Translations under genes and position numbers: made by a program
Source: a phage
Reading direction: 5' to 3' (one strand)
Sequence record: PZ386969.1
Length of the DNA: 64,000 bases
The notes under the pieces: model-generated
The model's input: only the letters and a program-made list of their open reading frames with translations
Database searches by the model: none
Told to the model about the DNA's origin: nothing
Part shown: positions 3,286 to 60,397 of the stretch, piece after piece
How positions within the stretch are numbered: the stretch's first letter is position 1
Layout: every line of letters begins with the position of its first letter

Positions 3286-3393
3286 AATGCAGCCTCATGG
3301 TGTATTGTACAACCGTATTATACTGTGATGCACAAATTGAAACGTCCAGCATTTACGCTGGACGTTATTGATATTGAAAAGGTTTTGACAAAC

Positions 3394-3627
3394 TCAGGAT
3401 TTGGAGGAAGCGCCCTTCCATGTCTGACGTTTGTAGTGGGAAGCCATGGCCATCGACCCGGCGTATTGCGTTTCACCCCTGACTACCACAGCCACAACCA
3501 GCTTATGTCGCAACAGGAAGTCTAGACCTGACTTAGACGGGATATCGCCAATGCTCAGTGGACCACGATTGTACAGGGCATACATGGTGTCAAGCGCCGC
3601 CCCGGTAAAGATAATCTCTTTAGACAT
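3394..3627 (-). CDS. hypothetical protein
   Basis: ORF 3394..3732 in track; start moved to internal ATG (MSKEIIF) to remove a 98-nt overlap with the upstream gene. Confidence 0.3.
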   Translation of the reverse strand: MSKEIIFTGAALDTMYALYNRGPLSIGDIPSKSGLDFLLRHKLVVAVVVRGETQYAGSMAMASHYKRQTWKGASSKS

Positions 3628-3634
3628 GGCGGTC

Positions 3635-3940
3635 TCACTTAAACGAGTCAACGATGGATGTAAGAATTTCGGGGGTGGGTTTGGCGTCTTGTGGTTCACG
3701 GAAACCCACCTTTGCGATGCGGCCCAAGACATTGTACACTTCGCGCGGAAGGGTGTCTACGACCGTGTCCGACATGAACGCCACGTCTTCTTGGATGGCG
3801 TTGTATTCGGCCAGTTTAGCCAGTTCTGATTCTACCAGGGACTTCAGCTTTTGCAATGGGTCGTTGCAATAGTTGAGACGGTTGCAGTTGGTGAGCGCCT
3901 GAGTTAAATTCTCAAACGCTTCTTGTATTTCCTTTGACAT
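3635..3940 (-). CDS. hypothetical protein
   Basis: ORF in track; start taken at ATG MSKEIQEAF. Confidence 0.35.
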   Translation of the reverse strand: MSKEIQEAFENLTQALTNCNRLNYCNDPLQKLKSLVESELAKLAEYNAIQEDVAFMSDTVVDTLPREVYNVLGRIAKVGFREPQDAKPTPEILTSIVDSFK

Positions 3941-4322
3941 TGATATGTGCCTCGTATTGTTGACAGACAACAACTACTTTACGGCACATGTCGATATCGA
4001 ACAAGCCAATATGACACTCACGCTTCTTTATCCCCAGCTTATGCGCCAGCCAACTGTAAGCGTCGCTCCTGCTCCTCTCTCCGCTTTTCCACAATGGGTC
4101 AAACGATCTATGGGCTTCCTGCTTAGCAGCACGGAGAGCGGCATTCGCCATCCTTCCCAAAGGTTGTCTGCCGTCGCCATGGGCATGGCAACCGACACGG
4201 GCATCACATGGAGTGCATACCCAGAACTTCAGATTGCGGAGGTCAGGGCGATGAGGGTAGAGAACATCACCACCGACGAATTCGGCTGGGAGGCCACAGT
4301 AATCACATATAACAGGTTTCAT
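3912..4322 (-). CDS. zinc-ribbon protein (four-Cys CxxC...CxxC motif)
   Basis: MKPVICDYCG...CTPCDARVGCHAHGD; start at internal ATG 4322; follows a terminator hairpin at 4341-4360. Confidence 0.45.
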   Translation of the reverse strand: MKPVICDYCGLPAEFVGGDVLYPHRPDLRNLKFWVCTPCDARVGCHAHGDGRQPLGRMANAALRAAKQEAHRSFDPLWKSGERSRSDAYSWLAHKLGIKKRECHIGLFDIDMCRKVVVVCQQYEAHINVKGNTRSV

Positions 4323-4340
4323 ATTCTTTGTCCAAAAGAA

Positions 4341-4360
4341 ACCCCGCACATGGCGGGGTT
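4341..4360 (-). terminator. rho-independent terminator
   Basis: Stem CCCCGC/GCGGGG followed by TTTCTTTT on the minus strand. Confidence 0.55.
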
Positions 4361-4382
4361 GCTCAGGCCGAGGCCAACAGGG

Positions 4383-4754
4383 TTATTTCAGGAGTGCTTC
4401 CAGTTCTTCAACAGATTTGCTTTCCAGCTCTTGCTGTTTCTTACGCTGGATCAGCTCCAGGATAACCTGGTTGTTCGCCTTACGCTCTGCCGCTTCTCTG
4501 CTGTCGTCACGTTCTTTCAGCTTAACGCCGATGATGTGCTTGACAACGTCGAAGCGCAGCTGCAGTTCGGAGTCAACGTTGCTTTTGGTACCAATGAAAT
4601 CTTCTTCATCGGTTTCTGCTGCTTTCACCTGACGGCTCAGACCTTTCGCCATTTCGTTCAGGGCAGTCAGGCTCAGGTCCCAGACCTGCTCAACAGACAG
4701 CAGACCTTTGTTAGACTCGAAGCGCAGTTTCATACGGGTTGCTTTATCAAACAT
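4383..4754 (-). CDS. hypothetical protein (charged, predicted helical)
   Basis: ORF in track; followed by terminator hairpin 4341-4360. Confidence 0.45.
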   Translation of the reverse strand: MFDKATRMKLRFESNKGLLSVEQVWDLSLTALNEMAKGLSRQVKAAETDEEDFIGTKSNVDSELQLRFDVVKHIIGVKLKERDDSREAAERKANNQVILELIQRKKQQELESKSVEELEALLK

Positions 4755-4798
4755 TTTACTATCCTCAATGATGAATGGGTTACAATTTCAAATCAGGT

Positions 4799-6817
4799 TT
4801 AGAACACAACTTTCACAGTGCGGTTGAAAGAACCGCTCACCTTCACGAACACGTGGTTGCGTTGGGTGGTAGAGAAGCCCAGACCGGACAGCTGCTCAGT
4901 GCTTGGCTGTACTTTAATCTTACCACCTAACATTTCAAAAACCTTGCGGTGTTTATCAAGTTCCGGCTTCAGATATTCGTTATAGAAACCACGGGTGCCG
5001 ACAGGGTTAGCACAACCTTCCAGGATGAAGAACACGTGCTTGTTGCCAGTCTGCTCGCCGTCCCAATGGTTTGGTGAGTTCAGAACCAGCTGTACCTTCT
5101 GGAAGACGGAGGTCTTGATGCCCCAGATTTCCTGAGAGCGAGCGTCGTCTTTCAGGGTAGAACGGATGTCTACCACTTGTCCAGCGCGGACATCAATCAC
5201 AACAGCCAGAGTGCGATCTTTGTGCTTCAGGCCAGGATGCGAAAAACGCTTGGTCTGGCCTTTGTATTCAACTTCGATTTCGAAGCCCATATCACAGGTT
5301 TCACGCTGGCTGAAGTTAGTGACATAGAACTCGTACAGACCATCACGCAGCTTGCGTTCATCGCTGAAGAAGATGTTCTCCACCGGACGGCGGTTTGGAT
5401 CAATGCCGTCCATACCGTTCATGTCGATGTCTAGAGTTGCGCCAGTTGTCGAACGACGGTTGTGATAATACACGTGGTTGTGAAGAGGATCGTTCAGGCT
5501 CAGATCCAGGTCGTCGTTGTTATGCCAAGCCAGTGACACACGGAGGAAGCTGTCGACATTGCCGCCTGCGGTCTTCACGCGCTCTTTGATGGAGTCGGCC
5601 ACTTCGCCATTGTACGACCAGCTGAAGCCGTTGTTCCACTTGAACAGGTTAGGAGCGCCTGCGGTGGCCGGAGCGATCAGGGACATCAGGTTGCCAATGT
5701 GAGAGTTTTCGACCAGCACTTCCAGGGAATGCGCCTTTGGCAACAAGTTGGTCAGGAAGTCGTCGATCGTGATCTCTTCAACCTTGTCCAGGGACTTGGT
5801 CGGAGTCTTCACTTCAGACGCCAGCTGAGCAAACGGGTCCATCTTCTTCTGAGCTGCCAGATCGGCGAACAGAACGTTGTTGATGGTCAGATCGTCATAC
5901 ACGGCATAACGGCGACCCAGTGAATCAGTCAGACCCAGCGCTTCGACTTCTTTCTGCGCGTTTTCAATCATCGACTTCGTGACCAGCGCGGTTGGGCGCT
6001 TGTAGTTCGTCGGAGCGACTTTGGCTTCAAAGGACTTCACGGCGGTTTCCAGATCCCGGCCTTCATTGAGGTCTACCAGCAGAGAGCCAATCACGGTATT
6101 ACGAATGCCGTGAGGGGTATGACCGTTTGCACGGTAGCCAGTGCGCCAAGCCCACAGAGCGCGTTTCTCTTCTGCAGTTTGTTCGTACAGGGTCTTGTTC
6201 ACCACGAACGCCTGCACTGCCGCTTTGTGCTCTTCACCGCGATACAGAGAATTCTGGTCAATCAATTCCAGAACGATTTCAGCCGATTCCAGAGACAGTT
6301 CACGCAGGCCGCGCTCAAACACTTCAATCGCCTGGCGGATTTCACCCTTCTTAGAAGCGATGGTATCTGCCCGCAGAACATAGCTGCCCAGCAGGTCGGT
6401 GTGGAAGTGGTTGTAGGTGCGGACAATACCATCTTTCATTTCGTGATTCGACTCAACACCAACTTTCTTGGTGTCGTTGAAGTACACGTCGACGATTGCG
6501 TGCTGCTTAACGTATGCTGACAGCGCCGCAGCGACAACGTCGTATTCGTTACCCAACTGAATGTTATCCCAGATAGAGATCACGTTCAGGTCGGAGTCGA
6601 TGGTGACCACACCGCCGATGTTACGGATGAATTGTTTACAGCAGGTGCAGTCGTGCTCGGTACGCTCACGATAAAGCGGGTTAGTGCCAGCAGGGAAAGA
6701 AGACAGATACAGATCCCACAGAGCATCTTTATCGATGTTGGTCATGAACAGACCAGTTGCTGACATGGCCAGCACGTTATTGTTGACAGCTACTGCGAAG
6801 GGCTTAAAATCTGACAT
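4799..6817 (-). CDS. large hypothetical protein (672 aa) with N-terminal Cys cluster
   Basis: ATG start with AGGAAG RBS; HDCTCCKQF motif; no P-loop or other catalytic motif recognised. Confidence 0.6.
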   Translation of the reverse strand: MSDFKPFAVAVNNNVLAMSATGLFMTNIDKDALWDLYLSSFPAGTNPLYRERTEHDCTCCKQFIRNIGGVVTIDSDLNVISIWDNIQLGNEYDVVAAALSAYVKQHAIVDVYFNDTKKVGVESNHEMKDGIVRTYNHFHTDLLGSYVLRADTIASKKGEIRQAIEVFERGLRELSLESAEIVLELIDQNSLYRGEEHKAAVQAFVVNKTLYEQTAEEKRALWAWRTGYRANGHTPHGIRNTVIGSLLVDLNEGRDLETAVKSFEAKVAPTNYKRPTALVTKSMIENAQKEVEALGLTDSLGRRYAVYDDLTINNVLFADLAAQKKMDPFAQLASEVKTPTKSLDKVEEITIDDFLTNLLPKAHSLEVLVENSHIGNLMSLIAPATAGAPNLFKWNNGFSWSYNGEVADSIKERVKTAGGNVDSFLRVSLAWHNNDDLDLSLNDPLHNHVYYHNRRSTTGATLDIDMNGMDGIDPNRRPVENIFFSDERKLRDGLYEFYVTNFSQRETCDMGFEIEVEYKGQTKRFSHPGLKHKDRTLAVVIDVRAGQVVDIRSTLKDDARSQEIWGIKTSVFQKVQLVLNSPNHWDGEQTGNKHVFFILEGCANPVGTRGFYNEYLKPELDKHRKVFEMLGGKIKVQPSTEQLSGLGFSTTQRNHVFVKVSGSFNRTVKVVF

Positions 6818-16479: not shown

Positions 16480-17250
16480 TTACTTCAGTGCGTTCTTCAG
16501 ATTATCGGAACCAATGCTGTTGATGACACCTCCGGCGCAGATATCTTTCGCCCACTCTGAGATCACGTTGGCAAAAGAGAAGTTAAGACACTTACCAACC
16601 ATGTCTTGGATATGGGCTAACTCTGCTGCAATACCGTTCGTGATGTCCTGAGCAATAGAGGCTACTGATGCGACAGCAGTGTCGATGGCCTGAGTAACTT
16701 CAGCAGCCAGTGCCCGAATAGCATCAAGACCAGCACTGACACCCTGAGCTACCAATTCAGCCAACTCATTCATCTTGTTTGTGATAGTTGTGAGAACACT
16801 TTGCATGGTATTGATCCACTGTTTGCCGAGGTTCTGAATAACCCCAAATGCATTATTGATCAGGTCACAGTTGTTCGGTTCTCGACCTATAGACTTCAGA
16901 GCGGACTTATAAGACACAGATGTACCGATGCGGGAATATGCCTCGTTCACTGACTGGTCGCCATAGTTGATCAGCGTGGTGATGCTGGTGTTTGCTGAGT
17001 CGAACATCGCCGTAGATTCGTTGAGTTTGGCTACAGTCAACCCACCTGCCGTCAGCGCTTCCTGAATCTGCGTATTTCCGGTGTTAGCCAGTGACGCTGT
17101 AGTCGCCTTACCACTGGTGATTAACCCCTGTGAGGCGCTGCTGAGGGACGGGAGAGGATTGGTAAAGGCGTTGCCCTGCGATAGGGCGTCATAGATCTGT
17201 GCGTTCATAAGAAAATACCCCCATGGATGATGGGGGTATTTAGGGATCAT
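16480..17250 (-). CDS. hypothetical late protein (Ala-rich, helical); alternative start at 17208
   Basis: ATG at 17250 overlaps the stop of an upstream small ORF (ATGA); second ATG at 17208 lies just after a late-promoter hairpin. Confidence 0.5.
   Translation of the reverse strand: MIPKYPHHPWGYFLMNAQIYDALSQGNAFTNPLPSLSSASQGLITSGKATTASLANTGNTQIQEALTAGGLTVAKLNESTAMFDSANTSITTLINYGDQSVNEAYSRIGTSVSYKSALKSIGREPNNCDLINNAFGVIQNLGKQWINTMQSVLTTITNKMNELAELVAQGVSAGLDAIRALAAEVTQAIDTAVASVASIAQDITNGIAAELAHIQDMVGKCLNFSFANVISEWAKDICAGGVINSIGSDNLKNALK
17213..17243 (-). promoter_or_regulatory. late promoter CTAAATACCCCC as 5' arm of a 10-bp hairpin; 3' arm GGGGGTATTT 9 nt before ATG 17208
   Basis: Perfect inverted repeat AAATACCCCC / GGGGGTATTT with 9-nt loop. 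Confidence 0.55.
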
Positions 17251-20026: not shown

Positions 20027-21361
20027 TTAGAAAAGTCCCTTAATTAACCCTTTGCGGAAATACACGTTGGTGTCCTTGGCGATACCATCCGCAGTCACAT
20101 AGACCTGTGGATCCTGGTTCGCTGGGATCTGAACGAACGGGTTGGCACAAATCCCGTAGCGGGTCTTGAACGCCATGCGTGGAGCGAAGGTGGTTTCACC
20201 CTGGGTGCGGTACATCTCCAGCGGAACGTATGGGGCGAAGAAGATACCAGCATCCAGCGCGGTTGCGCCTTTGTATGCCAGGGTGATGTACTCTGCTACT
20301 GCATACGGGTCGATGTAGACACGCATACCATTAGACAGCACACCAGCGAAGGTCTGGCCAGTCGGATCAATCGCCAGCTTGGTGTTTTCCTGCAGCGCCG
20401 GAGCATAATCCAGCATGCCGGACATCGCCAGAGCGGATGCTACGTTCGGGGAGCACAGAACACGGTTGCCTTTACCACGACGGGTGTCAACACCGATGCC
20501 GTTCGCTTCGACTTCCAGCATGAAAGTCATGTACTTCCATTTTTCCAGCGCCCAACGACCGGAGATGTCAGTGGAGATATCTACGATACCGTTGGTGCCG
20601 AATTTTTTGAAGCGTACTGCGCTGAAGTTCATGGTGCGGATAAACTCACGGTTCATCTCTGCCTGAATTTCAGTTACCATCACGTCGGACAGGATGCTGT
20701 CAACGTCTTCGCCGTGGATCGCCATCATGTCCTGGCGCAGTTCATGGCTGTAGTCAGCGTACAGGCCGCGAGACTTCGCAGTCACGGTTGCTTTCTGAAC
20801 GGTGATACCAACACGTGCCCATGGGTTAGTGGTGGTGCCCAGCAGTTCAGCGTCGGAAGTTGACATGCCTTTACCGATGGTGGTGGTGGCAGCGCCGGAA
20901 CCTTCGATCTCAGTCTGGGTAAAGCCAGATGGGTCGCCAGCCTGAGCAGTGTCGTCACCAGAGTAGCCAGAATCAGCTTCCTGCATGAACAGTTCTTTAC
21001 GGGAATGTTGGGTGTTGGATCCGCCGTCTGAAATGCCCTGGCGAGCACGCAGAGCAAAGATCTGACCGTCAGGACCAGACAGCGGCTGAACGCCGAAGAA
21101 GTCCATCGCGATGTTGACCGGAGCCAGACGTTTGGCCATGTCGATCAGGACTGGCTGCCATTTGCCCACAGAGGCGTTCACGGAGCCAGGAGCGTCGGAT
21201 TCGCCCAGGTTTTTGGCGTTCCACTCAGCCTGGTTTTGCAGCAGACGGACGGCAACGTTTTCGGCAGAAAGCGGCTGGATGCTTTCAGATTCTTTCTGAA
21301 GAACTGGCAGCCACTGCTCGCGCATTTGTTCGGTAACAAGTTTCTTAGCCATGATGGTCAT
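20027..21361 (-). CDS. gp23: major capsid protein (gp23-like)
   Basis: FGVQPLSGPDGQIFALRA, FAGVLSNGMRVYIDPYA and C-terminal FRKGLIKGLF match T4 gp23; strong terminator hairpin immediately downstream. Confidence 0.9.
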   Translation of the reverse strand: MTIMAKKLVTEQMREQWLPVLQKESESIQPLSAENVAVRLLQNQAEWNAKNLGESDAPGSVNASVGKWQPVLIDMAKRLAPVNIAMDFFGVQPLSGPDGQIFALRARQGISDGGSNTQHSRKELFMQEADSGYSGDDTAQAGDPSGFTQTEIEGSGAATTTIGKGMSTSDAELLGTTTNPWARVGITVQKATVTAKSRGLYADYSHELRQDMMAIHGEDVDSILSDVMVTEIQAEMNREFIRTMNFSAVRFKKFGTNGIVDISTDISGRWALEKWKYMTFMLEVEANGIGVDTRRGKGNRVLCSPNVASALAMSGMLDYAPALQENTKLAIDPTGQTFAGVLSNGMRVYIDPYAVAEYITLAYKGATALDAGIFFAPYVPLEMYRTQGETTFAPRMAFKTRYGICANPFVQIPANQDPQVYVTADGIAKDTNVYFRKGLIKGLF

Positions 21362-22339: not shown

Positions 22340-23008
22340 TCAGCCCAGATGTTTCAATGCGATATCGAGGCGGCGCAGGAAGTCGTCTTCTAACTGAATA
22401 TTGGTTTTCACCAATGAATCGACCACATGCCCCTTAATGTCCTTAGGAACCCAGATTCCTGAAGATTCATCAAGCTGCCATTCCACAGATTCGCTCACAG
22501 CCTTTACATAACAAACTTGTCCAGAAGGACGGTCGACTGCATCAACAGCAGTGAGCATAAAGCCGGGTTGAACGTCATCATAGCCGTTCACTGACTTGGT
22601 CTCACCAAGGCCACGTGTAGACACGGCCAGGTTGAAGTCTGCTTCAGCCAGAGCACGAATGATCTGACCTTTCGGTGTATTCAGGATCCGCGCTCGACCG
22701 ATAGCGTTGGTGCCTTCCCAGCGCAAAGATTCGGTTTTGAGTGCAGCGTGTTCGATATCGGGGAAAGGATAATCCGGATGCTTGAGTTCACCGATTGCAC
22801 GACGATCCTGGATATACTCTTTGTCGTATGCTTCGACAGCAGGGATACCCACCTTTTGGAGATCGTAGTTGCGACCATTACGGTTCACCTGGTTACACAT
22901 CACGAATGGACCTTCGATGTACATGGCTTTGCCGCCAGTAGCCGTGGCCGCTTCACCAATCTGAAGGTCTTTCCCTATCGCAGTGATCTCACGCAACAGT
23001 TTCATCAT
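22340..23008 (-). CDS. gp21: prohead core protease (gp21-like)
   Basis: YIEGPF..NRNGRNY, GELKHP and STRGLG resemble T4 gp21. Confidence 0.8.
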   Translation of the reverse strand: MMKLLREITAIGKDLQIGEAATATGGKAMYIEGPFVMCNQVNRNGRNYDLQKVGIPAVEAYDKEYIQDRRAIGELKHPDYPFPDIEHAALKTESLRWEGTNAIGRARILNTPKGQIIRALAEADFNLAVSTRGLGETKSVNGYDDVQPGFMLTAVDAVDRPSGQVCYVKAVSESVEWQLDESSGIWVPKDIKGHVVDSLVKTNIQLEDDFLRRLDIALKHLG

Positions 23009-23541: not shown

Positions 23542-25236
23542 TTATTCTTCACCACCAGGAGGGTTAGTCGCTGGGATGACGTTAGGTCTGAATTTCAGTG
23601 GACTGACTTCCCCGCTGCCGAAGCCGCCGGACTCATCTGCCTGCACTTCAGGGTATTTGCCTTCTTTCTTCTCTTTCGCGATCTTCTCTTGCTGGTCTTT
23701 GATGTCTTCATCGGACATACGCAGCAAATTGCGTTGAGCAAAATCGATAGAGAAGAGAGTGCCGATATATGGTTCGATCTGACCGAGAGCCGCCATACGC
23801 TGTGACAAGATTTCGTTCTCTTGTTGTTCACGGATGAAGCTGTCAGAAGTGAATTCGAACTTGACGAACGGCTTGATCTTCTCATTCCAGTCAGCCTGAT
23901 CTGTAATGCCTTTCAATATCAGTTGACGGCGCAGAAGTTCCAGGAAGATACCAGAAGAATAACGACGGCGCAGGCTCGCACAGAACTTGTTGAAGCGCAG
24001 TTCTTCCTGGGTGATTTCAGCAAGATTGGAACCACCAATGTTGATGGAACCTTCCTCTTGTAGACGGCTCTTAGGGATCATCAGAGCCTCGTAGAGCTTC
24101 TCGCGGAAGTATACCACATGATCCATTTGACCCAGTTGATCGCCACCGCCTACGTTGGAGATCTCGGTTGCGTTCTGCCCTTCGCGACGTGGTAGCCAGT
24201 AGTCCTCAGCGATACCCATCAAATGAGTGTTGCCAGCCACCTTACCAGTGGTGCGATCATACGCCAGACGGTTCTTGAATTTACCCATCATGGCTTGCAT
24301 GTATTCTTCGGCCGACTTCTTACCCAGCGTACCCACGTCGAGATAGAACGCTCGCTTCTCAGGAGCACGTGTGATCGCATAGATCACAGTTGCATCTTCA
24401 GTTGTAACAAGGTTGTTCAGGGGACGGATAGCTGGGTTCAGCAGGCTTGGTACAACCCCATTCGCCAGAGGCTCTTCACCACTGTCCAGATACACGATGC
24501 TCTCATCGTCGAACACCAGCTCTTGCTGTGACGGTTGGAAGTTCTGAGACGTACCGGACTGGCCAGTGAATTGGTTGCGGTTGTAGTTCGGGTTGTAGTA
24601 GTATTGAAGTTTTACGTCATTGATGACTTCGATACCGTCGCGCATCGCCTTTTGAACGATGTACACTGGGCGGATACAGCGTGAGTCCATCATGATGAGT
24701 TTGGCGATACCCGCTTTCTTGTTCTTCGGGTCCACTACAACGTGGAATGCCTGACGGCCTTCAATATACCATTTGCGGATCTTCTGATACGCCGTGTTGT
24801 CAAAGTCAAGGAGATGCATGATCTCTTTGAATGCTTCAGTGATCTTCTCTTTGACTTCGTTTGTGATGCCATCTACCTTTTCCAGGTTGATGGTTACAGG
24901 AGTCTCGTCCTCTTCACAGGTGACGATGTCGTTGACAATGATATCCACAGCCTTACGAATCTCAGGCTGCTGAGCCATAGACTGGTACTCTTCGACCAGC
25001 TGTTTGACGTTGAGCAACTCATTCTCAACACCAACGAAATTGAATGTGTTCGCGCCGCCCTGGAGGATGATCGAACCATCCTGAGAATCGTCCAGCGCAA
25101 CAACAGTCGCTTTTGAAAGCAACTTCTCTTCTTGGTTCGTGACCATCTTGTCGGTATCAATCGGCGCTTCTACTTTGCCGCCTCTGCCGAACAAGCCGAA
25201 GAACCCATTTCCGAATGCACCATTACCGAATGCCAT
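23542..25236 (-). CDS. gp20: portal protein (gp20-like)
   Basis: ITRAPEKRAFYLDVGTLGKKSAEEYMQ and EDYWLPRREGQ match T4 gp20 RITRAPDRRVWYVDTGNM and EDYWLQRRDGK. Confidence 0.85.
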   Translation of the reverse strand: MAFGNGAFGNGFFGLFGRGGKVEAPIDTDKMVTNQEEKLLSKATVVALDDSQDGSIILQGGANTFNFVGVENELLNVKQLVEEYQSMAQQPEIRKAVDIIVNDIVTCEEDETPVTINLEKVDGITNEVKEKITEAFKEIMHLLDFDNTAYQKIRKWYIEGRQAFHVVVDPKNKKAGIAKLIMMDSRCIRPVYIVQKAMRDGIEVINDVKLQYYYNPNYNRNQFTGQSGTSQNFQPSQQELVFDDESIVYLDSGEEPLANGVVPSLLNPAIRPLNNLVTTEDATVIYAITRAPEKRAFYLDVGTLGKKSAEEYMQAMMGKFKNRLAYDRTTGKVAGNTHLMGIAEDYWLPRREGQNATEISNVGGGDQLGQMDHVVYFREKLYEALMIPKSRLQEEGSINIGGSNLAEITQEELRFNKFCASLRRRYSSGIFLELLRRQLILKGITDQADWNEKIKPFVKFEFTSDSFIREQQENEILSQRMAALGQIEPYIGTLFSIDFAQRNLLRMSDEDIKDQQEKIAKEKKEGKYPEVQADESGGFGSGEVSPLKFRPNVIPATNPPGGEE

Positions 25237-25302: not shown

Positions 25303-25836
25303 TTAGAGAGACTTGTCTGAAATGGCCTGGAAGTAACGCAGGTCAACAGTGAACTGAGTATAAGAGTCCATTGCAGACATGTCCAGTTCCAGCTGACCGA
25401 GGTTCTGAGGCCAGGCGCCCTGAAGGGTCCAGGTCTTGGTGACATTGTCATTCGCATCCAGCAGTTCCATGATTACATCACGGAAATAATCATCTGGGTT
25501 AGCAGACGCACGGTTGTTGTTGCTGCCGTTGATGTACTGCTGCCAGACTTCGAATGCGTTGTACGGGGCGTTGTCCACAACGTTGATAAACGTTACAGGC
25601 AGAGCCTCAAAACGACGGTCACCTGGGAATGGAAGTTCACGACCACCCCATGGGACGAGTATCTCCCCGAGCTGGCCTGTTGGGGTATTTGTGGTCACCG
25701 CCAACAGCGAAACATCACGGATGGTATCGCTTCCAGCCACGAAGGAAGGGAAGTTAACAGTCACACGCCAACGGTGTTGGCGCTGAACGCCACCCCCGCG
25801 TGACATAGCTGCTCTGAATTCATTAACTGTAGCCAT
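25303..25836 (-). CDS. gp19: tail tube protein (gp19-like)
   Basis: 177 aa; position and C-terminal similarity to T4 gp19; late motif ACTAAATATTT and GAGGAGAA RBS. Confidence 0.75.
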   Translation of the reverse strand: MATVNEFRAAMSRGGGVQRQHRWRVTVNFPSFVAGSDTIRDVSLLAVTTNTPTGQLGEILVPWGGRELPFPGDRRFEALPVTFINVVDNAPYNAFEVWQQYINGSNNNRASANPDDYFRDVIMELLDANDNVTKTWTLQGAWPQNLGQLELDMSAMDSYTQFTVDLRYFQAISDKSL

Positions 25837-25860
25837 GGTCGTTCTCCTCTGAATAGTGTA

Positions 25861-25871
25861 AATATTTAGTT
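25861..25871 (-). promoter_or_regulatory. late promoter motif ACTAAATATTT upstream of tail tube gene
   Basis: Motif about 25 nt before ATG. Confidence 0.45.
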
Positions 25872-25917
25872 TTGAAATAAATGGGGGTTAAAATACTCCA
25901 AAGTGAGGATATTTATT

Positions 25918-27702
25918 ATGCCATTCCCCGATAAAAATTGTTTATGCTGCCACAAACCGTTCACCCCAACCAGGAAGGCTGCGTTGTATTGTAGTGACGA
26001 ATGTAAATCATTCATGCTGGGAACGATGAAACGTAATCCGGGTTTGTTGGATGACATCCCGACGACCGAAACCGAATGCCGCTCTTGGGTTGATAGTAAA
26101 CTCAGGAAGAAAGATGGTTCGTTGAACTACAAACTTATCTCTCATCCCCTACTCACGGCCCATACTGGGGTTGATGTTGTTGGATACGTGGTGTCACACA
26201 ACGACCTATTAGAAGAACCACAAGCGATAACTGCTTGGCTGTACGATATTCCGAAGTCGCAGTGTGCCACTTGCGGTGCTGACGTCGGCTTAGAAATGGA
26301 AGTCCAACCACCTAGATACAAAAAGTTTTGTTCCGAAGAATGCCAACGAGAATCAATGAAGGTGGGAGGCTCAGAACGGGCCAACCTAGAAAACGCCATA
26401 ACAGAGAAATATGGCGTAGCCAACATATTCCAACTGGAAGAAGTAAAACAAAAGTCACGGGAAACTGCCCTTAAGAAATATGGGGTCGACCACCCTATGA
26501 AGTCTGATGTTATAAAGGACAGAGTGGCTGCTTCCGTCATGGAACGCTATGGCGTATCACACGTCATGAAAATGCCAGAAGTGAGGGAAAGGGTGATTGA
26601 GACTTGGAGGAAGATCTATGGTGTGGATCATCCAATGTTCCTCAATTCCATTATAGAAAAGAGAAAGAAAACATGCGTCTTAAAATATGGGGTTGATTAT
26701 CCGTTGAAGGTAAAGGCTATATGGGATAGAAGCCAGGCCAATATCAGGATCATTTCAAAAGAAAAATACGGCGTACCTCACTATTTCTCTTCTGAAGAAT
26801 ATAGGAACTCTTTCACATACCCCAGCAGTCAAAGCCAAACACAGCCAGAAATAGAAATATGTTCATACCTGGATTCATTGGGCGTCGTTTATGAATCTGG
26901 TAATTTCTCCGTCCTCAGAGGTAAAATGTTCGACGGGAGGGCGACCACACGCCAGATAGACATATACTGCCCAGAACATAAGTTGGCAATAGAATTTAAT
27001 GGGTTGTATTGGCATTCGGAGAAACATCGATACAAAGACTACCATCTTGAAAAGACCATGCACTGTGAATCACAGGGTATTCAATTAATCCATATCTGGG
27101 AAGATGAGTGGCGTGACAAACAGGAAGTGGTTAAATCACTCCTTAAAGCAAAATTGGGGATAGGGAAACCATTGTCATACGCTCGCCAACATACCATTTT
27201 GGAAGGCTCCTATAGGACGTCCAAGGACTTTCTCGACCGATTCCATATACAAGGCGGTGTGGTGGCGACAGATTATATACACCTTGTAGACAAAACTGGG
27301 AATATCCAGGCGGTGATGTTGTTTACCAAACGAGTGCATGGTATTGAATTGGTGAGATTTGCTTCTAACAATTGCCATGGCGCATTCTCACGCTTGCTGA
27401 AATATTATATCGCTCGACATCGGGGTGAGACAGTATATTCTTTTGGTGATCGTTGTGTTGTCAGTCGTCTGAAAAATGTTTACCTGAATAACGGATTTGT
27501 TGAAAAGGAAATCCTTCCCCCTGATTACAAATATGTGACACCAGACTATAGCTTACGTATACACAAATTCAATTTCAGGAAAGAGAAATTCCTTAAACTT
27601 GGATATGATATAGAAGGTAAAACAGAGGATATGCTGTCGGTAGAAGCTGGGTTGGGGCGTATCTGGGGGTGTGGTCTCATCCGGTATGAACTGGAAAACT
27701 AA
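25918..27702 (+). CDS. free-standing nuclease, probable homing endonuclease (zinc ribbon + five KYGV repeats + PD-(D/E)xK Vsr/DUF559-like domain)
   Basis: Plus-strand ORF between minus-strand sheath and tube genes; RQIDIYCPEHKLAIEFNGLYWHSE...IWEDEW nuclease motif; start moved from GTG 25903 to ATG with GTGAGGA RBS. Confidence 0.7.
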   Translation: MPFPDKNCLCCHKPFTPTRKAALYCSDECKSFMLGTMKRNPGLLDDIPTTETECRSWVDSKLRKKDGSLNYKLISHPLLTAHTGVDVVGYVVSHNDLLEEPQAITAWLYDIPKSQCATCGADVGLEMEVQPPRYKKFCSEECQRESMKVGGSERANLENAITEKYGVANIFQLEEVKQKSRETALKKYGVDHPMKSDVIKDRVAASVMERYGVSHVMKMPEVRERVIETWRKIYGVDHPMFLNSIIEKRKKTCVLKYGVDYPLKVKAIWDRSQANIRIISKEKYGVPHYFSSEEYRNSFTYPSSQSQTQPEIEICSYLDSLGVVYESGNFSVLRGKMFDGRATTRQIDIYCPEHKLAIEFNGLYWHSEKHRYKDYHLEKTMHCESQGIQLIHIWEDEWRDKQEVVKSLLKAKLGIGKPLSYARQHTILEGSYRTSKDFLDRFHIQGGVVATDYIHLVDKTGNIQAVMLFTKRVHGIELVRFASNNCHGAFSRLLKYYIARHRGETVYSFGDRCVVSRLKNVYLNNGFVEKEILPPDYKYVTPDYSLRIHKFNFRKEKFLKLGYDIEGKTEDMLSVEAGLGRIWGCGLIRYELEN

Positions 27703-31885: not shown

Positions 31886-32588
31886 TGTCTTCACCTTCTT
31901 CCTTCGGCTGCGGCTCGGCCTGAACGTCGATTACATCTTCTTCGGGATCAGGTCCTTTGGACGCAGCTTTCGCTGCAGCACGTTCTTCAGCACGTTTACG
32001 GGCGTCTTCGATGGTCTTCAGTAGATCACGGGAAGACCTGGCCTGTTTACCGACGTTGACCGTGGTTGTGCCATCAGGGGACGTGGTGACCTCGACGGTT
32101 GTTTCATCTCCAGGAGGTGGCTCTCTGTCGCCCGTGACTGCCTTGATAGTTTTCTGGTTCTCCATCAGGTCTTTGTTCAGACCGCGCATGAGTTCACCCA
32201 ACTCTTTAAAGACTGTGAAGGCACGGGGTGCTTCAGTCGTCGTCGCAAGTTTGGCTGCCTGTCCCATCATGAACATCGTGGCTTCCTGCATGGCATAAGT
32301 CGTGTCACGGATGCGTTTGTAGTCGGTGGTGGCATCAGTGTCTTCGAAGTCTGGAACCTTAGACTCCTTGGGCTTCAGCTCTTCTGGGTCCAATGAAGGA
32401 GGAAACACCACAGGCTCATACCCCGCAGACTCATACCCCGCAGGCTTTTCACCCAACCATTCACCTGTATCCGGATCGTAATCTTTTCCAGCCACAGGCG
32501 AGGTCTTCTCCATGACTTCTTGAGCGACCTCATCTCGCGCTTGGATAGCACTGAGGGTGGATAATAGGCGTTCTGACATAGCACTCAT
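31866..32588 (-). CDS. terS: terminase small subunit (gp16-like)
   Basis: Central region resembles T4 gp16; overlaps terL start by 20 nt; start moved from TTG to ATG with GGAG RBS. Confidence 0.6.
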   Translation of the reverse strand: MSAMSERLLSTLSAIQARDEVAQEVMEKTSPVAGKDYDPDTGEWLGEKPAGYESAGYEPVVFPPSLDPEELKPKESKVPDFEDTDATTDYKRIRDTTYAMQEATMFMMGQAAKLATTTEAPRAFTVFKELGELMRGLNKDLMENQKTIKAVTGDREPPPGDETTVEVTTSPDGTTTVNVGKQARSSRDLLKTIEDARKRAEERAAAKAASKGPDPEEDVIDVQAEPQPKEEGEDNGVSEA

Positions 32589-45216: not shown

Positions 45217-45253
45217 ATACCCCATAGAGGATTTGCCAATATGGGGTATTTAG
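45217..45253 (-). promoter_or_regulatory. late promoter CTAAATACCCCAT as 5' arm of hairpin; 3' arm ATGGGGTAT 6 nt before ATG 45210
   Basis: Inverted repeat ATACCCCAT / ATGGGGTAT with 15-nt loop. Confidence 0.55.
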
Positions 45254-48625: not shown

Positions 48626-48666
48626 AAATACCCCTAAATGTGTTCGTTTCATCTAGGGGTATTTAG
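48626..48666 (-). promoter_or_regulatory. late promoter CTAAATACCCCTA as 5' arm of hairpin; 3' arm TAGGGGTATTT 3 nt before ATG 48622
   Basis: Inverted repeat AAATACCCCTA / TAGGGGTATTT with 17-nt loop. Confidence 0.55.
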
Positions 48667-57513: not shown

Positions 57514-58707
57514 ATGAACAAGACCATCTTCGATACCCTTTCCCTCGACCGCAACCTGGTCCATTGGGAAGATTATCTCTACAAGCACACCCCGTGCGAA
57601 CTTGTCGTCAACCCCGAAACCAACCAGCAGGTCTGGTTCAAGCGTGAAGATTATTTTGCGCCGCTGTCTAACTATGCCAACGCCAAGCAGGGCATCAATG
57701 GCAGCAAACTCCGCCAGGCCATCTGGTTGATGGTTGAGCACCTCAAGGCCGGAGGCTCCCCTGACATCATCCATGGTACTGTCGTTGGTAGTCCGCAGTC
57801 CCCTATGGCGACAGCAGTCTCTCGGCACTTCGGCGGCAAGACAACCACTGTACTCGGAGCGACCAAACCCACCACCTGTATGAACCACGACATGGTGGCA
57901 ATGTCAGCCTGGTTTGGTAGTGAGTTCAACTTCGTCGGCTCGGGTTACAACAGCACGATCCAGCCGCGCTGTAAGAAGTTGATCGAACAACAGAATCCAA
58001 AGGCGTATTATCTGGAGTATGGTATCACCCTCGACCATACAACCCACTCCCCTGAGCGCATTGCTGGGTTCCATATGCTGGGTGGCGAGCAGGTTGCCAA
58101 CATCCCTGACCATATTACCGATCTGATTATCCCTGCTGGATCCTGCAACTCGTGCACAAGCATCCTGACCGGGCTGGCAATGCATCCGAAGCCTAATCTG
58201 AAGCGTGTGTATCTGATCGGCATCGGTCCGAACCGCCTGGACTTCATTGAGAGCCGTCTGCGCATCATCGGCAAACATGCCAATCTACCGCACATTGTCG
58301 ACTTCACCCGTCGCTATCACGACAACCCAGACTATGTACACGGCAAGAAGGAGCTTCAGCATGCCTCTAAGAGCGTTTCGCTGGCTGGCCTCCTGAGTGG
58401 TATCAGGCAGAAGGAAGAGCCAGAGGTCGTGCTTCCTCGCTTTGAGGTACACCATTGGGATCTTCATACCACTAATTGGGTTCGTTATAATGACCTGATG
58501 GAATATCAGTGGGGTGATATTGAGTTGCATCCTCGCTATGAAGGCAAGGTCATGACCTGGGTTCAGCAACACAAGCCCGAGTTGCTCAATGAGAACACTC
58601 TGTTCTGGATTGTGGGTAGCAAGCCGTACATTGAGCCAATGAAGGCTGCATGCCCTGAACTGGCTATCCCTGAAACAGTTCCTGTAAACGACTTCACCCC
58701 TTCCTGA
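57514..58707 (+). CDS. PLP-dependent enzyme, fold type II (ACC deaminase / D-cysteine desulfhydrase family)
   Basis: TPCELV...FKREDY...NGSKLRQ (PLP-lysine region) and IIPAGSCNSCTSILTGL Gly-rich loop align with E. coli DcyD motifs KRDD, GGNKLRK, VVASGSAGTHAGL. Confidence 0.7.
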   Translation: MNKTIFDTLSLDRNLVHWEDYLYKHTPCELVVNPETNQQVWFKREDYFAPLSNYANAKQGINGSKLRQAIWLMVEHLKAGGSPDIIHGTVVGSPQSPMATAVSRHFGGKTTTVLGATKPTTCMNHDMVAMSAWFGSEFNFVGSGYNSTIQPRCKKLIEQQNPKAYYLEYGITLDHTTHSPERIAGFHMLGGEQVANIPDHITDLIIPAGSCNSCTSILTGLAMHPKPNLKRVYLIGIGPNRLDFIESRLRIIGKHANLPHIVDFTRRYHDNPDYVHGKKELQHASKSVSLAGLLSGIRQKEEPEVVLPRFEVHHWDLHTTNWVRYNDLMEYQWGDIELHPRYEGKVMTWVQQHKPELLNENTLFWIVGSKPYIEPMKAACPELAIPETVPVNDFTPS

Positions 58708-58713
58708 TCCATC

Positions 58714-58747
58714 CTAAATACCCCATACAAACCAGTGTGGGGTATTT
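58714..58747 (+). promoter_or_regulatory. late promoter CTAAATACCCCAT as 5' arm of hairpin; 3' arm TGGGGTATTT abuts ATG 58748
   Basis: Inverted repeat AAATACCCCA / TGGGGTATTT with 11-nt loop. Confidence 0.55.
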
Positions 58748-59212
58748 ATGAAAACCTTTCTTGAATATCTTAAAGAGGCGTCTGAGGCTGAACCCAAGTT
58801 CGATAACATGCGCCTCTTTCACGGCTCCAACGTAGAATTCGATGTCTTCGACTTTGAGCGCTTCGGTCAGACCGACTGTGGTACGATGGGACCTGGGTTC
58901 TATCTGACAGGCAACGAAGAAGAGGCACAGCGCTATGCAGAGAATGCCGTCCGCTACCGCCAGAGTGGTGAACCCCATGTTCTGGTGTTTAACGTCAGTG
59001 TTAAGAAGCCCCTCGAACTTGACTCTAACAATGTCTCGGCCTGGGAAGACGCTATGCGTGAACTTGGTATCGAACCGGGTAAGATCCATGAGAACGCCGC
59101 CGAGCTAATTGCTCAGGGCTATGACTCCACCATCGTGCTGGACCGCTTTGGGTTGCCTATGGTACGTGAGATCGTCCTGTACAAACCAGGCCTGGCAGTG
59201 CGGGAAGCCTAA
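58748..59212 (+). CDS. PARP-like (H-Y-E class) ADP-ribosyltransferase domain protein (154 aa)
   Basis: LFHGSNVEF ... GPGFYLTGNEEEAQRYA ... REIVLY parallels the PARP catalytic signature LWHGS ... GKGIYFADMVSKSANY ... NEYIVY; late-promoter hairpin immediately upstream. Confidence 0.5.
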   Translation: MKTFLEYLKEASEAEPKFDNMRLFHGSNVEFDVFDFERFGQTDCGTMGPGFYLTGNEEEAQRYAENAVRYRQSGEPHVLVFNVSVKKPLELDSNNVSAWEDAMRELGIEPGKIHENAAELIAQGYDSTIVLDRFGLPMVREIVLYKPGLAVREA

Positions 59213-59221
59213 ATACCCCCA
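59209..59221 (+). promoter_or_regulatory. late promoter motif CTAAATACCCCC upstream of acidic protein gene
   Basis: Motif 28 nt before ATG 59249. Confidence 0.45.
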
Positions 59222-59248
59222 TATGGCTAACCCACTGAGGAACCTAAC

Positions 59249-59707
59249 ATGCCAACCTCCAAATTGTTTGAATCAGAATACACCAATGACATCCCTGTAT
59301 GGACTGGTGTTCAAGACGGTATCACGATTGAGCTGTTTAATCGTGAAGAGACAGGCGCGGAAGAGATCTATGCAGGCGTTGAAGGCACTGATGTTGTCCG
59401 CGCCGCCGTAGCACTTGCTACCTTCCTGGAAGATGCACCGATTGATGGTGTGCCGTTCGAGGCGCACGTAGATCCCAAGGATCCGACCTCTATCATCATT
59501 ACAGTGAATGGGGTGCCATACACTTCGTACAGTATCGAGACGGACGAAGAGGGAAGCGGAGCGCTGTATATTGCCACCGACCTGCAGCTGGAAGACGATG
59601 AGATGGATTATCTGATTCAGAACGGGGTGCTGCCACCGTTTACCGATGAAGAACTGGACACGGAACTGGCTGCTGTCGGGGACGACGAAGACTTCTGGGA
59701 AGAATAA
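59249..59707 (+). CDS. acidic hypothetical protein (152 aa)
   Basis: ATG with GAGGAA RBS; CTAAATACCCCC motif upstream; Asp/Glu-rich. Confidence 0.5.
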   Translation: MPTSKLFESEYTNDIPVWTGVQDGITIELFNREETGAEEIYAGVEGTDVVRAAVALATFLEDAPIDGVPFEAHVDPKDPTSIIITVNGVPYTSYSIETDEEGSGALYIATDLQLEDDEMDYLIQNGVLPPFTDEELDTELAAVGDDEDFWEE

Positions 59708-59709
59708 GA

Positions 59710-59740
59710 AAAGGGGCGTTAAGCCCCTTTCTTATTTCTT
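59710..59740. terminator. bidirectional terminator between convergent genes
   Basis: Stem AAGGGGC/GCCCCTT with T-rich flanks on both strands. Confidence 0.6.
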
Positions 59741-59744
59741 CACA

Positions 59745-60302
59745 TTAAAGGCGGGAATCCAGCCAGGCGTTCTTTTCGTTCTGCCACTCCCAAGCGGCCT
59801 GACCGCCTGCCATGATCACTTCCAGGGAAGGAGTATTGTCATCCTCGCCACCGTGAAGGTCAGGGTCGAAGCCGTCATCTTCAGGATCGTCTTCGCATTC
59901 ATTCTGATAAGCGGAATATTCGATGTAATGGGCTTCAGCATCGCAATCCATGTCACCCAGAGCAGCCTCAAGAGTCATTTTACCTTCGGCAATCAGCTCG
60001 GCAGTCGCATCGTCCAGGCCTGCGTCTTTCGCTTCAACGAACAGTTCGTGACGTTTCTGGAAAAGGAAGAAGTTCATGGCTTCAATGCGTGAGTCGAAGT
60101 ACTCTTTGCGGGGAATCATGATTTCACGACCATCGACTTTGCTTACCATCAGCAGGCATGAACCGTATTCAACCAGGTAGCGACCGCCTTTCACTGGGTT
60201 GGAACCGTCAATTGTTCCCAGAGTGGTGATTGCGCGGCCTTCTTCAGTTCCGTACATTACAGTTTTACCAGATTTGGATTGAGTGATAATTTCGATTGCC
60301 AT
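59745..60302 (-). CDS. hypothetical protein
   Basis: Track ORF starts at TTG 60389; moved to ATG MAIEIITQ with AAGGAA RBS; early-type promoter upstream. Confidence 0.45.
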   Translation of the reverse strand: MAIEIITQSKSGKTVMYGTEEGRAITTLGTIDGSNPVKGGRYLVEYGSCLLMVSKVDGREIMIPRKEYFDSRIEAMNFFLFQKRHELFVEAKDAGLDDATAELIAEGKMTLEAALGDMDCDAEAHYIEYSAYQNECEDDPEDDGFDPDLHGGEDDNTPSLEVIMAGGQAAWEWQNEKNAWLDSRL

Positions 60303-60351
60303 GATGTATTTCCTTCTCTTCAGATTGTTGTTTGTTCGTACTACAATTAGA

Positions 60352-60380
60352 AGTATACGCCAGTTATTGAAGAAGTAAAC
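60352..60380 (-). promoter_or_regulatory. early-type promoter GTTTAC-N17-TATACT (minus strand)
   Basis: Exact T4-like -35 GTTTAC; AT-rich upstream block; drives gene 59745..60302. Confidence 0.45.
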
Positions 60381-60397
60381 TTTATTCAATAAATATT

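Follow-up and report, generated by a model that had tools for sequence, protein, structure and literature searches.

What do the two small genes at positions 58,714 to 59,707 of phage sequence record PZ386969.1 contribute to the virus, and do they function as a pair? We address this question in the context of the whole 64,000-nucleotide stretch that was analysed (hereafter, the window). The first open reading frame (ORF A) codes for a protein that an original prediction, made from the nucleotide sequence, had described as a miniature ADP-ribosyltransferase (ART) resembling the enzymes of the PARP group. The second (ORF B) codes for a very acidic protein that had been proposed to serve as its partner. 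Both reading frames proved to be as described, with coordinates and translations in agreement. With moderate confidence, we favour the interpretation that the ORF A product is an ART made late in infection, loaded into the phage head by means of an N-terminal tag, cleaved, and injected to act early on the host, and that the ORF B product is a separate virion protein. The two genes and the ribosome-binding site of the second are as follows.

58748 to 59212, plus strand: ORF A, a 154-amino acid stand-alone ART (ART-PolyVal family, H-Y-E-type fold)
59249 to 59707, plus strand: ORF B, a 152-amino acid very acidic virion protein (phrog_3852, no Pfam match)
59238 to 59243, plus strand: Shine-Dalgarno sequence GAGGAA of ORF B

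The only factual slip in the original prediction was its use of phage T4 as the frame of reference, since the genome is that of a member of the Ackermannviridae rather than of a T4-like phage. Megablast assigns the region to this family (Vi1-like myoviruses of the Agtrevirus type), with 97% identity to Enterobacter phage fGh-Ecl02 and Escherichia phage AV101, and homologous regions are also present in Agtre-, Limestone-, Kutter- and Taipeiviruses.

ORF A encodes an ART of the already catalogued ART-PolyVal (Tox-ART-HYD2) family, which has the H-Y-E-type fold of PARPs and diphtheria toxin, and to judge from its sequence the protein is probably active and dependent on nicotinamide adenine dinucleotide (NAD+). 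The Pfam model for ART-PolyVal (PF18760) matches residues 21-128 with 41.6 bits against a gathering threshold of 31.2 (E 2.7e-10), and the model for the sister family DUF3990 (PF13151) scores 31.2 bits, just under its cut-off of 32.2. Both Pfam families are pre-annotated on 21 of 21 database homologs. One homolog is named ‘ART-PolyVal-like domain-containing protein’ in UniRef, and one GenBank record reads ‘ADP-ribose transferase’. Matches of up to 37.6 bits were also obtained with PADLOC models for candidate defence systems (PDC-M13, M10 and M42), and NCBIfam yielded zero matches for ORF A, ORF B or the enzyme encoded immediately upstream. Structure prediction, which had been proposed as a check on the assignment, gave a confident AlphaFold2 model from an alignment of 18 orthologs (pLDDT 84.3, pTM 0.76), and in this model the protein is predicted to adopt the split beta-sheet that characterizes ARTs of the H-Y-E clade. 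Membership in the group formed by T4 Alt, ModA and ModB (R-S-E-2, the Alt/VIP2 clade, with an active site of Arg, Ser-Thr-Ser and Glu-x-Glu) was considered and rejected because the catalytic class differs. The T4 enzymes belong to the R-S-E class (PMC5512222), and the original prediction was correct in setting ORF A apart from them.

An exhaustive profile search recovered 1,348 relatives, most of which are domains within proteins of 1,000-7,000 amino acids that carry up to nine tandem ART-PolyVal copies, at times together with GNAT domains. The ORF A product is an acidic (isoelectric point 4.7), single-domain protein of approximately 17 kDa that is not embedded in a large polyvalent protein, although such a context is typical of the Pfam family but not strictly required by it. 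More remote relationships emerge at the limit of detection. When PDB sequences were searched with the ORF A sequence by itself or with a narrow ortholog profile, only noise (TPR repeats, 14-3-3) was returned, and a broad family profile (A3, comprising 35 diverse members) was the only one to reach PARPs and toxins. The matches to this profile are tankyrase-1 (E 0.006), PARP4, PARP12, exotoxin A, diphtheria toxin, PARP16, PARP10 and PARP3; all are marginal (E 0.006-2), and a handful of unrelated low-scoring sequences accompany the H-Y-E enzymes. ORF A shares just 15-24% identity with PARP domains, diphtheria toxin and exotoxin A, its core is much smaller, and it lacks both the helical regulatory domain of PARPs and the translocation and receptor domains of the toxins.

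Existing annotations of ORF A orthologs are in some instances misleading, in that they are variously labelled ‘putative N-acetyltransferase’, ‘ParB C-terminal domain’ or ‘DarB-like antirestriction protein’ (records OL615011, Gloob gp182; OP610151, Guerrero; PP974338, FKP10; PP889471, phi1_146021). The Gloob ‘putative N-acetyltransferase’ was considered as a possible replacement gene in the ORF A slot, but with 73% identity to ORF A, gp182 is a mis-annotated ortholog, and at least this label is wrong.

The residues expected to bind NAD+ and to carry out catalysis can be assigned to the following positions.

58820 to 58828, plus strand: H25-G26-S27, the NAD-binding His motif, aligned with FHGS of tankyrase-1
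58901 to 58936, plus strand: Y52 (within GFYLT) to Y63 (within AQRYA), the pair of Tyr residues of the H-Y-E nicotinamide pocket, aligned with GIYFA and SNQYV of tankyrase
59123 to 59125, plus strand: D126 in a G-Y-D-S strand, a nearly invariant Asp, aligned with the GHHS strand of tankyrase
59168 to 59170, plus strand: E141 in REIVLY, the equivalent of the PARP/tankyrase catalytic Glu, aligned (weakly) with the E of AEYVIY in tankyrase-1

The ordered H-Y-E elements that had been claimed for ORF A, namely LFHGS (H25), GPGFYLTGNEEEAQRYA (Y52 and Y63) and REIVLY (E141), are all present in its translation and are conserved. Among the 18 orthologs, H25-G-S, G-F-Y52, Y63, G-Y-D126-S and E141 are invariant. 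Among 63 near-full-length distant domains, H25 is kept in all 63, Y52 in 60 and D126 in 62, position 63 is occupied by Tyr (55) or Phe (8), and position 141 is most commonly Glu (54), with Gln in six and His in two. Alignment of the A3 profile to tankyrase-1 pairs YHGt with FHGS, GkGfYlt with GAGIYFA, AkeYA with SNQYV, GYDgvi with GHHSVI, and vkEvvvF with YAEYVIY. The segment that includes the His and both Tyr residues aligns convincingly (16.3 bits); the Glu segment is in register and contributes just 1.2 bits. The Glu of REIVLY, put forward as a candidate catalytic residue, thus sits at the PARP-equivalent position in an alignment that is weak at this point.

The published description of the family is H-Y-D (Tox-ART-HYD2), with His on strand 1, Tyr on strand 2 and Asp on strand 5 (PMC5512222). 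H25, Y52 and D126 agree with this definition, and they fall on or beside strands 18-27, 51-54 and 127-131 of the predicted model. D126 is probably the ‘D’ of the published description, whereas E141 appears from the alignment to occupy the position of the PARP catalytic Glu, with D126 on the preceding strand. Given the weak Glu segment and the published H-Y-D assignment, either D126 or E141 may therefore provide the catalytic acid. A related alternative accepts that the protein is packaged and injected, but assigns it a different chemistry: hydrolysis or phosphorolysis of NAD+ as carried out by MbcT and RES toxins, or ADP-ribosylation of nucleic acids as carried out by DarT and CmdT. Although we consider this alternative unlikely, it survives better than the others that are weighed below.

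The first ten codons of ORF A provide a candidate explanation for how the enzyme might reach the head (in the sequences below, a slash marks a cleavage site).

58748 to 58777, plus strand: codons 1-10, MKTFLEYLKE, a candidate propeptide for capsid targeting; predicted site of prohead-protease cleavage, L8-K9-E10/A11

In T4, the internal proteins IPII and IPIII both begin with MKTYQEFIAE/A and IPI begins with MKTFKEF; the T4 internal-protein tag MKTYQEFIAE/AS is to be compared with MKTFLEYLKE/AS in ORF A. According to published work (PMC9026906), the T4 prohead protease gp21 cuts after L/I-x-E. Residues 1-10 of IPIII are by themselves enough for head targeting, which needs residues 4 and 7, while processing needs residues 8 and 10. 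With F4, Y7, L8 and E10, ORF A fits the T4 capsid-targeting sequence at all four functional positions, as do the T4 internal proteins with an aromatic residue at 4 and 7, Leu or Ile at 8 and Glu at 10. Among the 1,674 ORF starts in the window, none matches the T4 tag as well by BLOSUM62 as that of ORF A, which scores 30 (next best, 20; mean -2.4, standard deviation 6.1) and remains at the top of 4,570 ORF starts once the greater part of the AV101 genome is included. A T4-style head-loading tag on this protein is new in the present analysis, with targeting and cleavage as predictions drawn from the resemblance.

The window also encodes the machinery that such a tag would engage.

22340 to 23008, minus strand: gp21-type prohead protease (tblastn with T4 gp21: 37% identity, E 9e-20)
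23542 to 25236, minus strand: portal (gp20-like) gene, flanking the protease gene
20027 to 21361, minus strand: major capsid protein (gp23-like) gene, flanking the protease gene

Approximately 53 residues from its N-terminus, the major capsid protein contains NLGE/SDAPG, which is analogous to the L-T-E/A maturation site of T4 gp23. This L-G-E/S site is consistent with conserved gp21-type specificity.

Similar N-termini recur elsewhere. Other tag-like starts in the Ackermannviridae are MKPFLQYFKE, MKGFQDFLED, MKGFQDFLLKE and MSKPSFLQFMQE, and two small proteins that begin with MKGFQDFL share the tag signature. Tag-like loci are located in AV101 at 75517-76095 (minus strand; 25517-26095 of locus L012) and at 24608-24841 (plus strand; locus L011), and in phage LIMEstone1 at ORF079, ORF080 and ORF082 (3041-5512 of locus L013). 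LIMEstone1 ORF080 (MKPFIQYFNE, located after a TATAAATA promoter) and ORF082 (MSKPSFLQFMQE) are virion proteins confirmed by mass spectrometry that have no assigned function. Distant stand-alone ART-PolyVal proteins likewise start with MKTFEQFLKE, MKTFLEYITE, MLTFEAYLAE or MISFKQYILE, and on one contig that encodes such a protein, the next gene starts with MKTIQEFALD. Together with the ART, the tagged proteins may constitute a set of head-internal cargo proteins.

Packaging of this family in virions, followed by injection, has been forecast (PMC5512222, PMC9503650), and the same fate had been suggested for ORF A in the original prediction. Published mass spectrometry lends weight to the packaging part of this forecast, because homologs of both proteins have been detected in virions. 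LIMEstone1 ORF173 (the ORF A homolog) and ORF174 (the ORF B homolog) are annotated ‘confirmed structural protein’ on the basis of one peptide each, and CsCl-purified virions of phage Sajous1 yielded 10 spectra for gp116, which we identified as the ORF A homolog by its coordinates, and 31 for gp115 (ORF B).

Late expression of both genes is indicated by the elements that precede them.

58714 to 58724, plus strand: late-promoter motif CTAAATACCCC before ORF A, an exact match located 7 nucleotides past the stop codon of the upstream gene and forming the 5′ arm of a hairpin
58715 to 58748, plus strand: hairpin with a 14-base pair perfect stem and a 6-nucleotide loop (dG -21.9 kcal/mol; z -5.15 versus shuffles)
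59209 to 59219, plus strand: second copy of CTAAATACCCC, serving ORF B, overlapping the ORF A stop codon (59210-59212) and without a hairpin

Exact copies of CTAAATACCCC number six in the window, and seven matches are found when one mismatch is allowed, versus 0.56 expected at that tolerance; none of 100 shuffles reached seven. In LIMEstone1, the same two sites before the ORF A and ORF B homologs bear the annotation ‘putative late promoter’, and CTAAATAcCcc has been described as a hallmark motif of the Ackermannviridae (PMC7283392). AV101 carries homologs of late factors of the T4 type, namely a gp55-like late sigma factor and a gp33-like co-activator. The assertion that both genes lie behind late promoters, and that the first of these is a hairpin promoter, is thus borne out.

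The hairpin before ORF A is conspicuous because its 5′ arm is the late promoter and its 3′ arm takes in both a GGGG stretch resembling a Shine-Dalgarno sequence and the first base (A) of the ORF A start codon. Its stem is invariant and its loop variable among seven phages from three to four genera. Similar hairpins accompany four of the six exact copies of the motif (17233-17243, 45243-45253 and 48656-48666 on the minus strand, and 58714-58724 on the plus strand) and are missing from the remaining two (14034, minus strand, and 59209, plus strand). In these hairpinned cassettes, the 3′ arm (GGGGTATTT plus an extension) stops 3-10 nucleotides ahead of the start codon, and the stem extensions past the promoter consensus differ from one cassette to another with complementarity kept. 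In two relatives where ORF B does not directly follow the ART gene, it is equipped with a hairpin late promoter of its own: in a divergent metagenomic relative (locus L010, 8320-8372), the arms are CTAAATACCCCAATG...CATTGGGGTATTA, and in Erwinia phage Bue1 (locus L015, 3430-3503) they are CTAAATAACCCCAT...ATGGGGTT. The stem extensions of these two cassettes are likewise different yet complementary.

Hairpin-gated late translation has a model in the T4 genes e, soc and I-TevI. By analogy, transcription from the late promoter would start inside the hairpin, such that the ribosome-binding site would be open in late mRNAs and closed in mRNAs that result from read-through. Given that four of the six late motifs are hairpinned and that their extensions are cassette-specific and complementary, we suggest that hairpin late promoters are a general device for limiting translation to late-promoter transcripts. 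The conserved hairpin, which combines a late promoter (5′ arm) with a ribosome-binding site (3′ arm), is also new in this analysis. A literature search for Ackermannviridae transcriptomics gave nothing usable, and a preprint on phage transposon mutagenesis included no Ackermannviridae.

From these features we infer a mechanism that encompasses the enzymatic activity of ORF A, the translational gating of its mRNA, its location inside the head, its cleavage, its injection and the existence of a host target. Late machinery of the T4 type, encoded by the phage, would transcribe ORF A from CTAAATACCCC. The 3′ arm of the hairpin would conceal the ribosome-binding site, and only the late-promoter transcripts, which would lack the 5′ arm, would be translated efficiently; read-through transcripts from the upstream gene would carry the closed hairpin and stay silent. 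The MKTFLEYLKE segment could then act as a T4 capsid-targeting sequence does and bring the protein into the scaffolding core of the prohead; once there, it would be cut after L-K-E by the gp21-type protease. The remaining enzyme of approximately 144 amino acids would stay in the head, enter the cell along with the DNA, and ADP-ribosylate one or more host targets ahead of any phage gene expression. Overall, this would amount to the strategy of T4 Alt and IPI*, executed by a different ART clade. The ORF B product, expressed from its own promoter, would be a family-wide acidic virion protein whose function is independent of ORF A.

Several observations weigh against this interpretation. The alignment of E141 with the PARP catalytic Glu is weak when considered alone, the published H-Y-D description offers D126 as the competing catalytic acid, and no biochemical characterization of any ART-PolyVal member was found in the literature searched. 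Kuttervirus orthologs have Tyr at position 8, and Glu at position 10 is not constant in some lineages; this variation means that not every ortholog can be cleaved after residue 10. Most of the T4 internal proteins are basic, whereas the ORF A product is acidic. The mass spectrometry of virions is silent on head versus tail location, and the single LIMEstone1 peptide is no more than was obtained for gp44 or for obvious contaminants such as DNA ligase. Finally, the hairpin stem is invariant and thus offers no covariation within the orthologs, and its 5′ arm is already constrained by its role as a promoter.

ORF B has an unusual composition. Its isoelectric point is 4.05, and its 38 Asp and Glu residues versus four Lys and Arg residues give a net charge of about -34 over 152 amino acids, in accord with the ‘very acidic’ label that it had been given. 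An AlphaFold2 model (pLDDT 70.9) predicts a beta-rich core at residues 18-125, with disordered ends and an acidic tail. The conserved C-terminal end reads DDEDFW, an acidic-aromatic tail that resembles the interaction tails of SSB and gp2.5-type proteins. Searches of PDB and BFVD revealed no structural relatives. Its N-terminus was tried as a second head-loading tag and rejected, since it scores 14 and is no outlier among the 1,674 ORF starts of the window.

These properties bear on the DNA-mimic idea of the original prediction, for which charge was the only ground. In a fuller version of this idea, the ORF B product would be co-injected and would act, independently of ORF A, as a DNA mimic or as an anti-restriction protein akin to Ocr or ArdA. 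The extreme negative charge would suit such a role, as would its presence in virions, its conservation throughout a family with modified DNA and its DDEDFW tail. However, its predicted fold resembles neither the known DNA mimics nor anything else, the model shows a globular, beta-rich core flanked by disordered tails rather than an elongated array of surface carboxylates, and an N-terminus unlike a targeting sequence leaves head loading unsupported. On balance, we regard a DNA-mimic function as quite unlikely.

We give less credence still to the proposal that the ORF A product acts late in the producing cell, as T4 ModA and ModB do, in which case its detection in virions would reflect carry-over and its likeness to the T4 tag would be either coincidental or a functionless legacy of common descent. 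The LIMEstone1 data could be read in this manner, in that one peptide puts the ORF A homolog level with DNA ligase, PhoH and gp44; non-structural proteins also appear in the Sajous1 list, and the cleavage motif is not kept in all orthologs. However, the 10 Sajous1 spectra are comparable to those for the baseplate hub (13) and a baseplate wedge subunit (12), with the tail lysozyme at 20, and are well over those for terminase (4 for the large subunit, and 1). Moreover, ORF A homologs were detected independently in two genera, and the tag is a 1-in-4,570 outlier that recurs in other virion proteins confirmed by mass spectrometry.

Finally, the distribution of the two genes speaks to whether they form a pair. 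ORF B was found throughout the Ackermannviridae sampled, and phage records containing ORF B outnumber those containing ORF A by 278 to 226; these counts are indicative only, and the ORF A absences on which we rely are the verified cases of Ag3 and Bue1. In Shigella phage Ag3, ORF A is reduced to a frameshifted remnant with an internal deletion, whereas the hairpin promoter, the second promoter and ORF B are intact. This remnant (about 2650-2790 of locus L004), in which the first approximately nine codons are joined to the last approximately 19, constitutes a natural knock-out. Phages MK-13, P46FS4 and SKML-39 probably carry the same type of remnant, since their coverage is reduced in the same way as that of Ag3. 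Bue1 has the upstream enzyme gene, gp174 and ORF B and has no ART gene. In L010, the order is ART, upstream-type enzyme, two further genes and ORF B, which places three genes between the two; the annotated ORF B start there is probably too far upstream, with MLESKLF the likely real start. Klebsiella phage K751 was also considered as an example lacking ORF A, but this proved wrong, as it has an intact ortholog with 73% identity.

Strict co-occurrence and adjacency are therefore broken by Ag3, Bue1 and L010. Because ORF B is kept where ORF A is deleted, absent or distant, it does not depend on ORF A, and we conclude that it is not a dedicated antitoxin or chaperone, although ORF A may in turn need ORF B, and that ORF A is an accessory function that is lost in some lineages. 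Of all the alternatives, we find least credible the one in which ORF A is a toxic ART and ORF B is produced alongside it as an inhibitor, an immunity protein or a chaperone for packaging, by analogy with Tox-ART toxin-antitoxin pairs or type III effector-chaperone pairs: it draws on their neighbouring positions here, and is countered by the persistence of ORF B without a functional ORF A, by their separation in L010 and by the lack of fold relatives for ORF B.

The preferred reading, a tag-loaded and injected ART, can be compared with several established systems. The closest are the ART-PolyVal domains of polyvalent proteins (Iyer et al. 2017, PMC5512222), with which ORF A has in common the motifs HG[ST], G-x-G-[FI]-Y and G-[YH]-D-[GS], an origin in phages and a setting of late or virion genes; both are also predicted to be packaged and injected. 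Unlike these domains, ORF A is a single-domain protein and not a module within a giant one, has a T4-type N-terminal decapeptide in place of a fusion to MuF, portal or virion RNA polymerase sequences, and has a conserved E141 at the PARP catalytic-Glu position besides the Asp published for the polyvalent enzymes. T4 Alt, the functional model used by Iyer et al. (PMC5512222), is likewise a late-made, dispensable ART present in the virion of a myovirus whose head is of the gp21/gp22/gp23 type.

The T4 internal proteins resemble ORF A in being small, late, non-essential and of a diverse cargo type, and one of them, IPI*, is an injected anti-restriction protein. They differ in showing no homology to ORF A past the propeptide and in being non-enzymes; for ORF A, head location and cleavage are predictions. 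No sequence relationship was detected between ORF A and AcrIF11, an anti-CRISPR mono-ART of approximately 137 amino acids from phages and plasmids. To our knowledge, AcrIF11 is expressed after entry, and we know of no packaging of it in virions. The small ARTs of DUF3990 (PF13151; approximately 150-160 amino acids) form the sister family of ORF A and are found in Rhs and type VI secretion system toxins and among PADLOC candidates. Whereas ORF A would be virion cargo, these proteins are toxins of bacteria or candidates for a defence role, and they have immunity partners.

As noted above, the family is catalogued and ORF A homologs have been labelled by automated annotation. Three points are new: an architecture in which the ART stands alone and bears a tag, the connection of entries listed as ‘unknown structural protein’ with an ART, and the existence of natural knock-outs. 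ART-PolyVal has been reported as the commonest protein-modifying enzyme domain of the giant polyvalent proteins whose injection by phages and conjugative elements has been predicted. Our reading agrees with the family prediction of Iyer et al., to which it adds a candidate loading signal and the published virion evidence. The Ackermannviridae protein is a natural minimal form, comprising one domain of approximately 17 kDa with a late promoter, a candidate tag and virion homologs in two genera, and close relatives of the Ag3 type permit comparison with natural knock-outs. As a result, the long-standing prediction that head-packaged H-Y-type ARTs serve as early takeover or anti-defence enzymes becomes directly testable, in phages (Kuttervirus, Agtrevirus and Limestonevirus) that are in use for biocontrol and therapy. 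Proteins that have been listed for more than 10 years as ‘unknown structural protein’ also gain a probable identity, and if the tag works as it does in T4, foreign cargo could be loaded into Ackermannviridae capsids.

A bolder proposal, which we consider improbable when taken as a whole, is that the Ackermannviridae possess a T4-like cargo-loading system. A tag of the form MK-x-F-[LIQ]-[EQD]-[YF]-[LF]-x-E would load a set of proteins that includes an injected, PARP-like counter-defence enzyme, in this case a minimal one of 144 amino acids. ORF A would then modify a component of host immunity or a nucleic acid, much as AcrIF11 but delivered by the virion, and ORF B would be a second pre-loaded factor, for example a nuclease decoy. 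If this proposal were true, it would give the ART-PolyVal family its first biochemical function.

Two further features delimit the locus.

57514 to 58707, plus strand: gene for a pyridoxal phosphate (PLP)-dependent enzyme upstream of ORF A (phrog_3650; weak Pfam PALP match, 30.3 bits, under the cut-off)
59710 to 59730, both strands: bidirectional intrinsic terminator that closes the ORF A-ORF B late unit and the convergent minus-strand genes (two-strand terminator scan)

The upstream gene, annotated as a threonine ammonia-lyase or PLP enzyme, remains linked to the ART and ORF B genes through the changes in gene order seen in L010 and Bue1. A PLP enzyme is involved in thymidine hypermodification in ViI-like phages. 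An equivalent of the terminator is also annotated in LIMEstone1 and Ag3. The convergent ORF of 214 amino acids (59745-60389, minus strand; phrog_4823, without a Pfam match) shares the bidirectional terminator with ORF B, and the content of the convergent region beyond ORF B is variable, with one to three small genes in Ag3, Gloob, D5lw and LIMEstone1.

Outside the window, the corresponding genome type encodes other functions related to ADP-ribose and NAD+. In AV101, positions 31899-32498 and 97645-100160 encode a T4 Tk.4-like protein and an NAD+ salvage pair, the latter comprising a nicotinamide phosphoribosyltransferase and a phosphoribosyl pyrophosphate synthetase. The Tk.4-like protein has an A1pp/macro motif and appears as ‘ADP-ribose binding protein’ in a listing of the Vi01 core genome. 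Given that these genes reside in the same genome type, the phage may therefore hold a writer of ADP-ribose marks, a possible eraser or reader, and a supply of NAD+.

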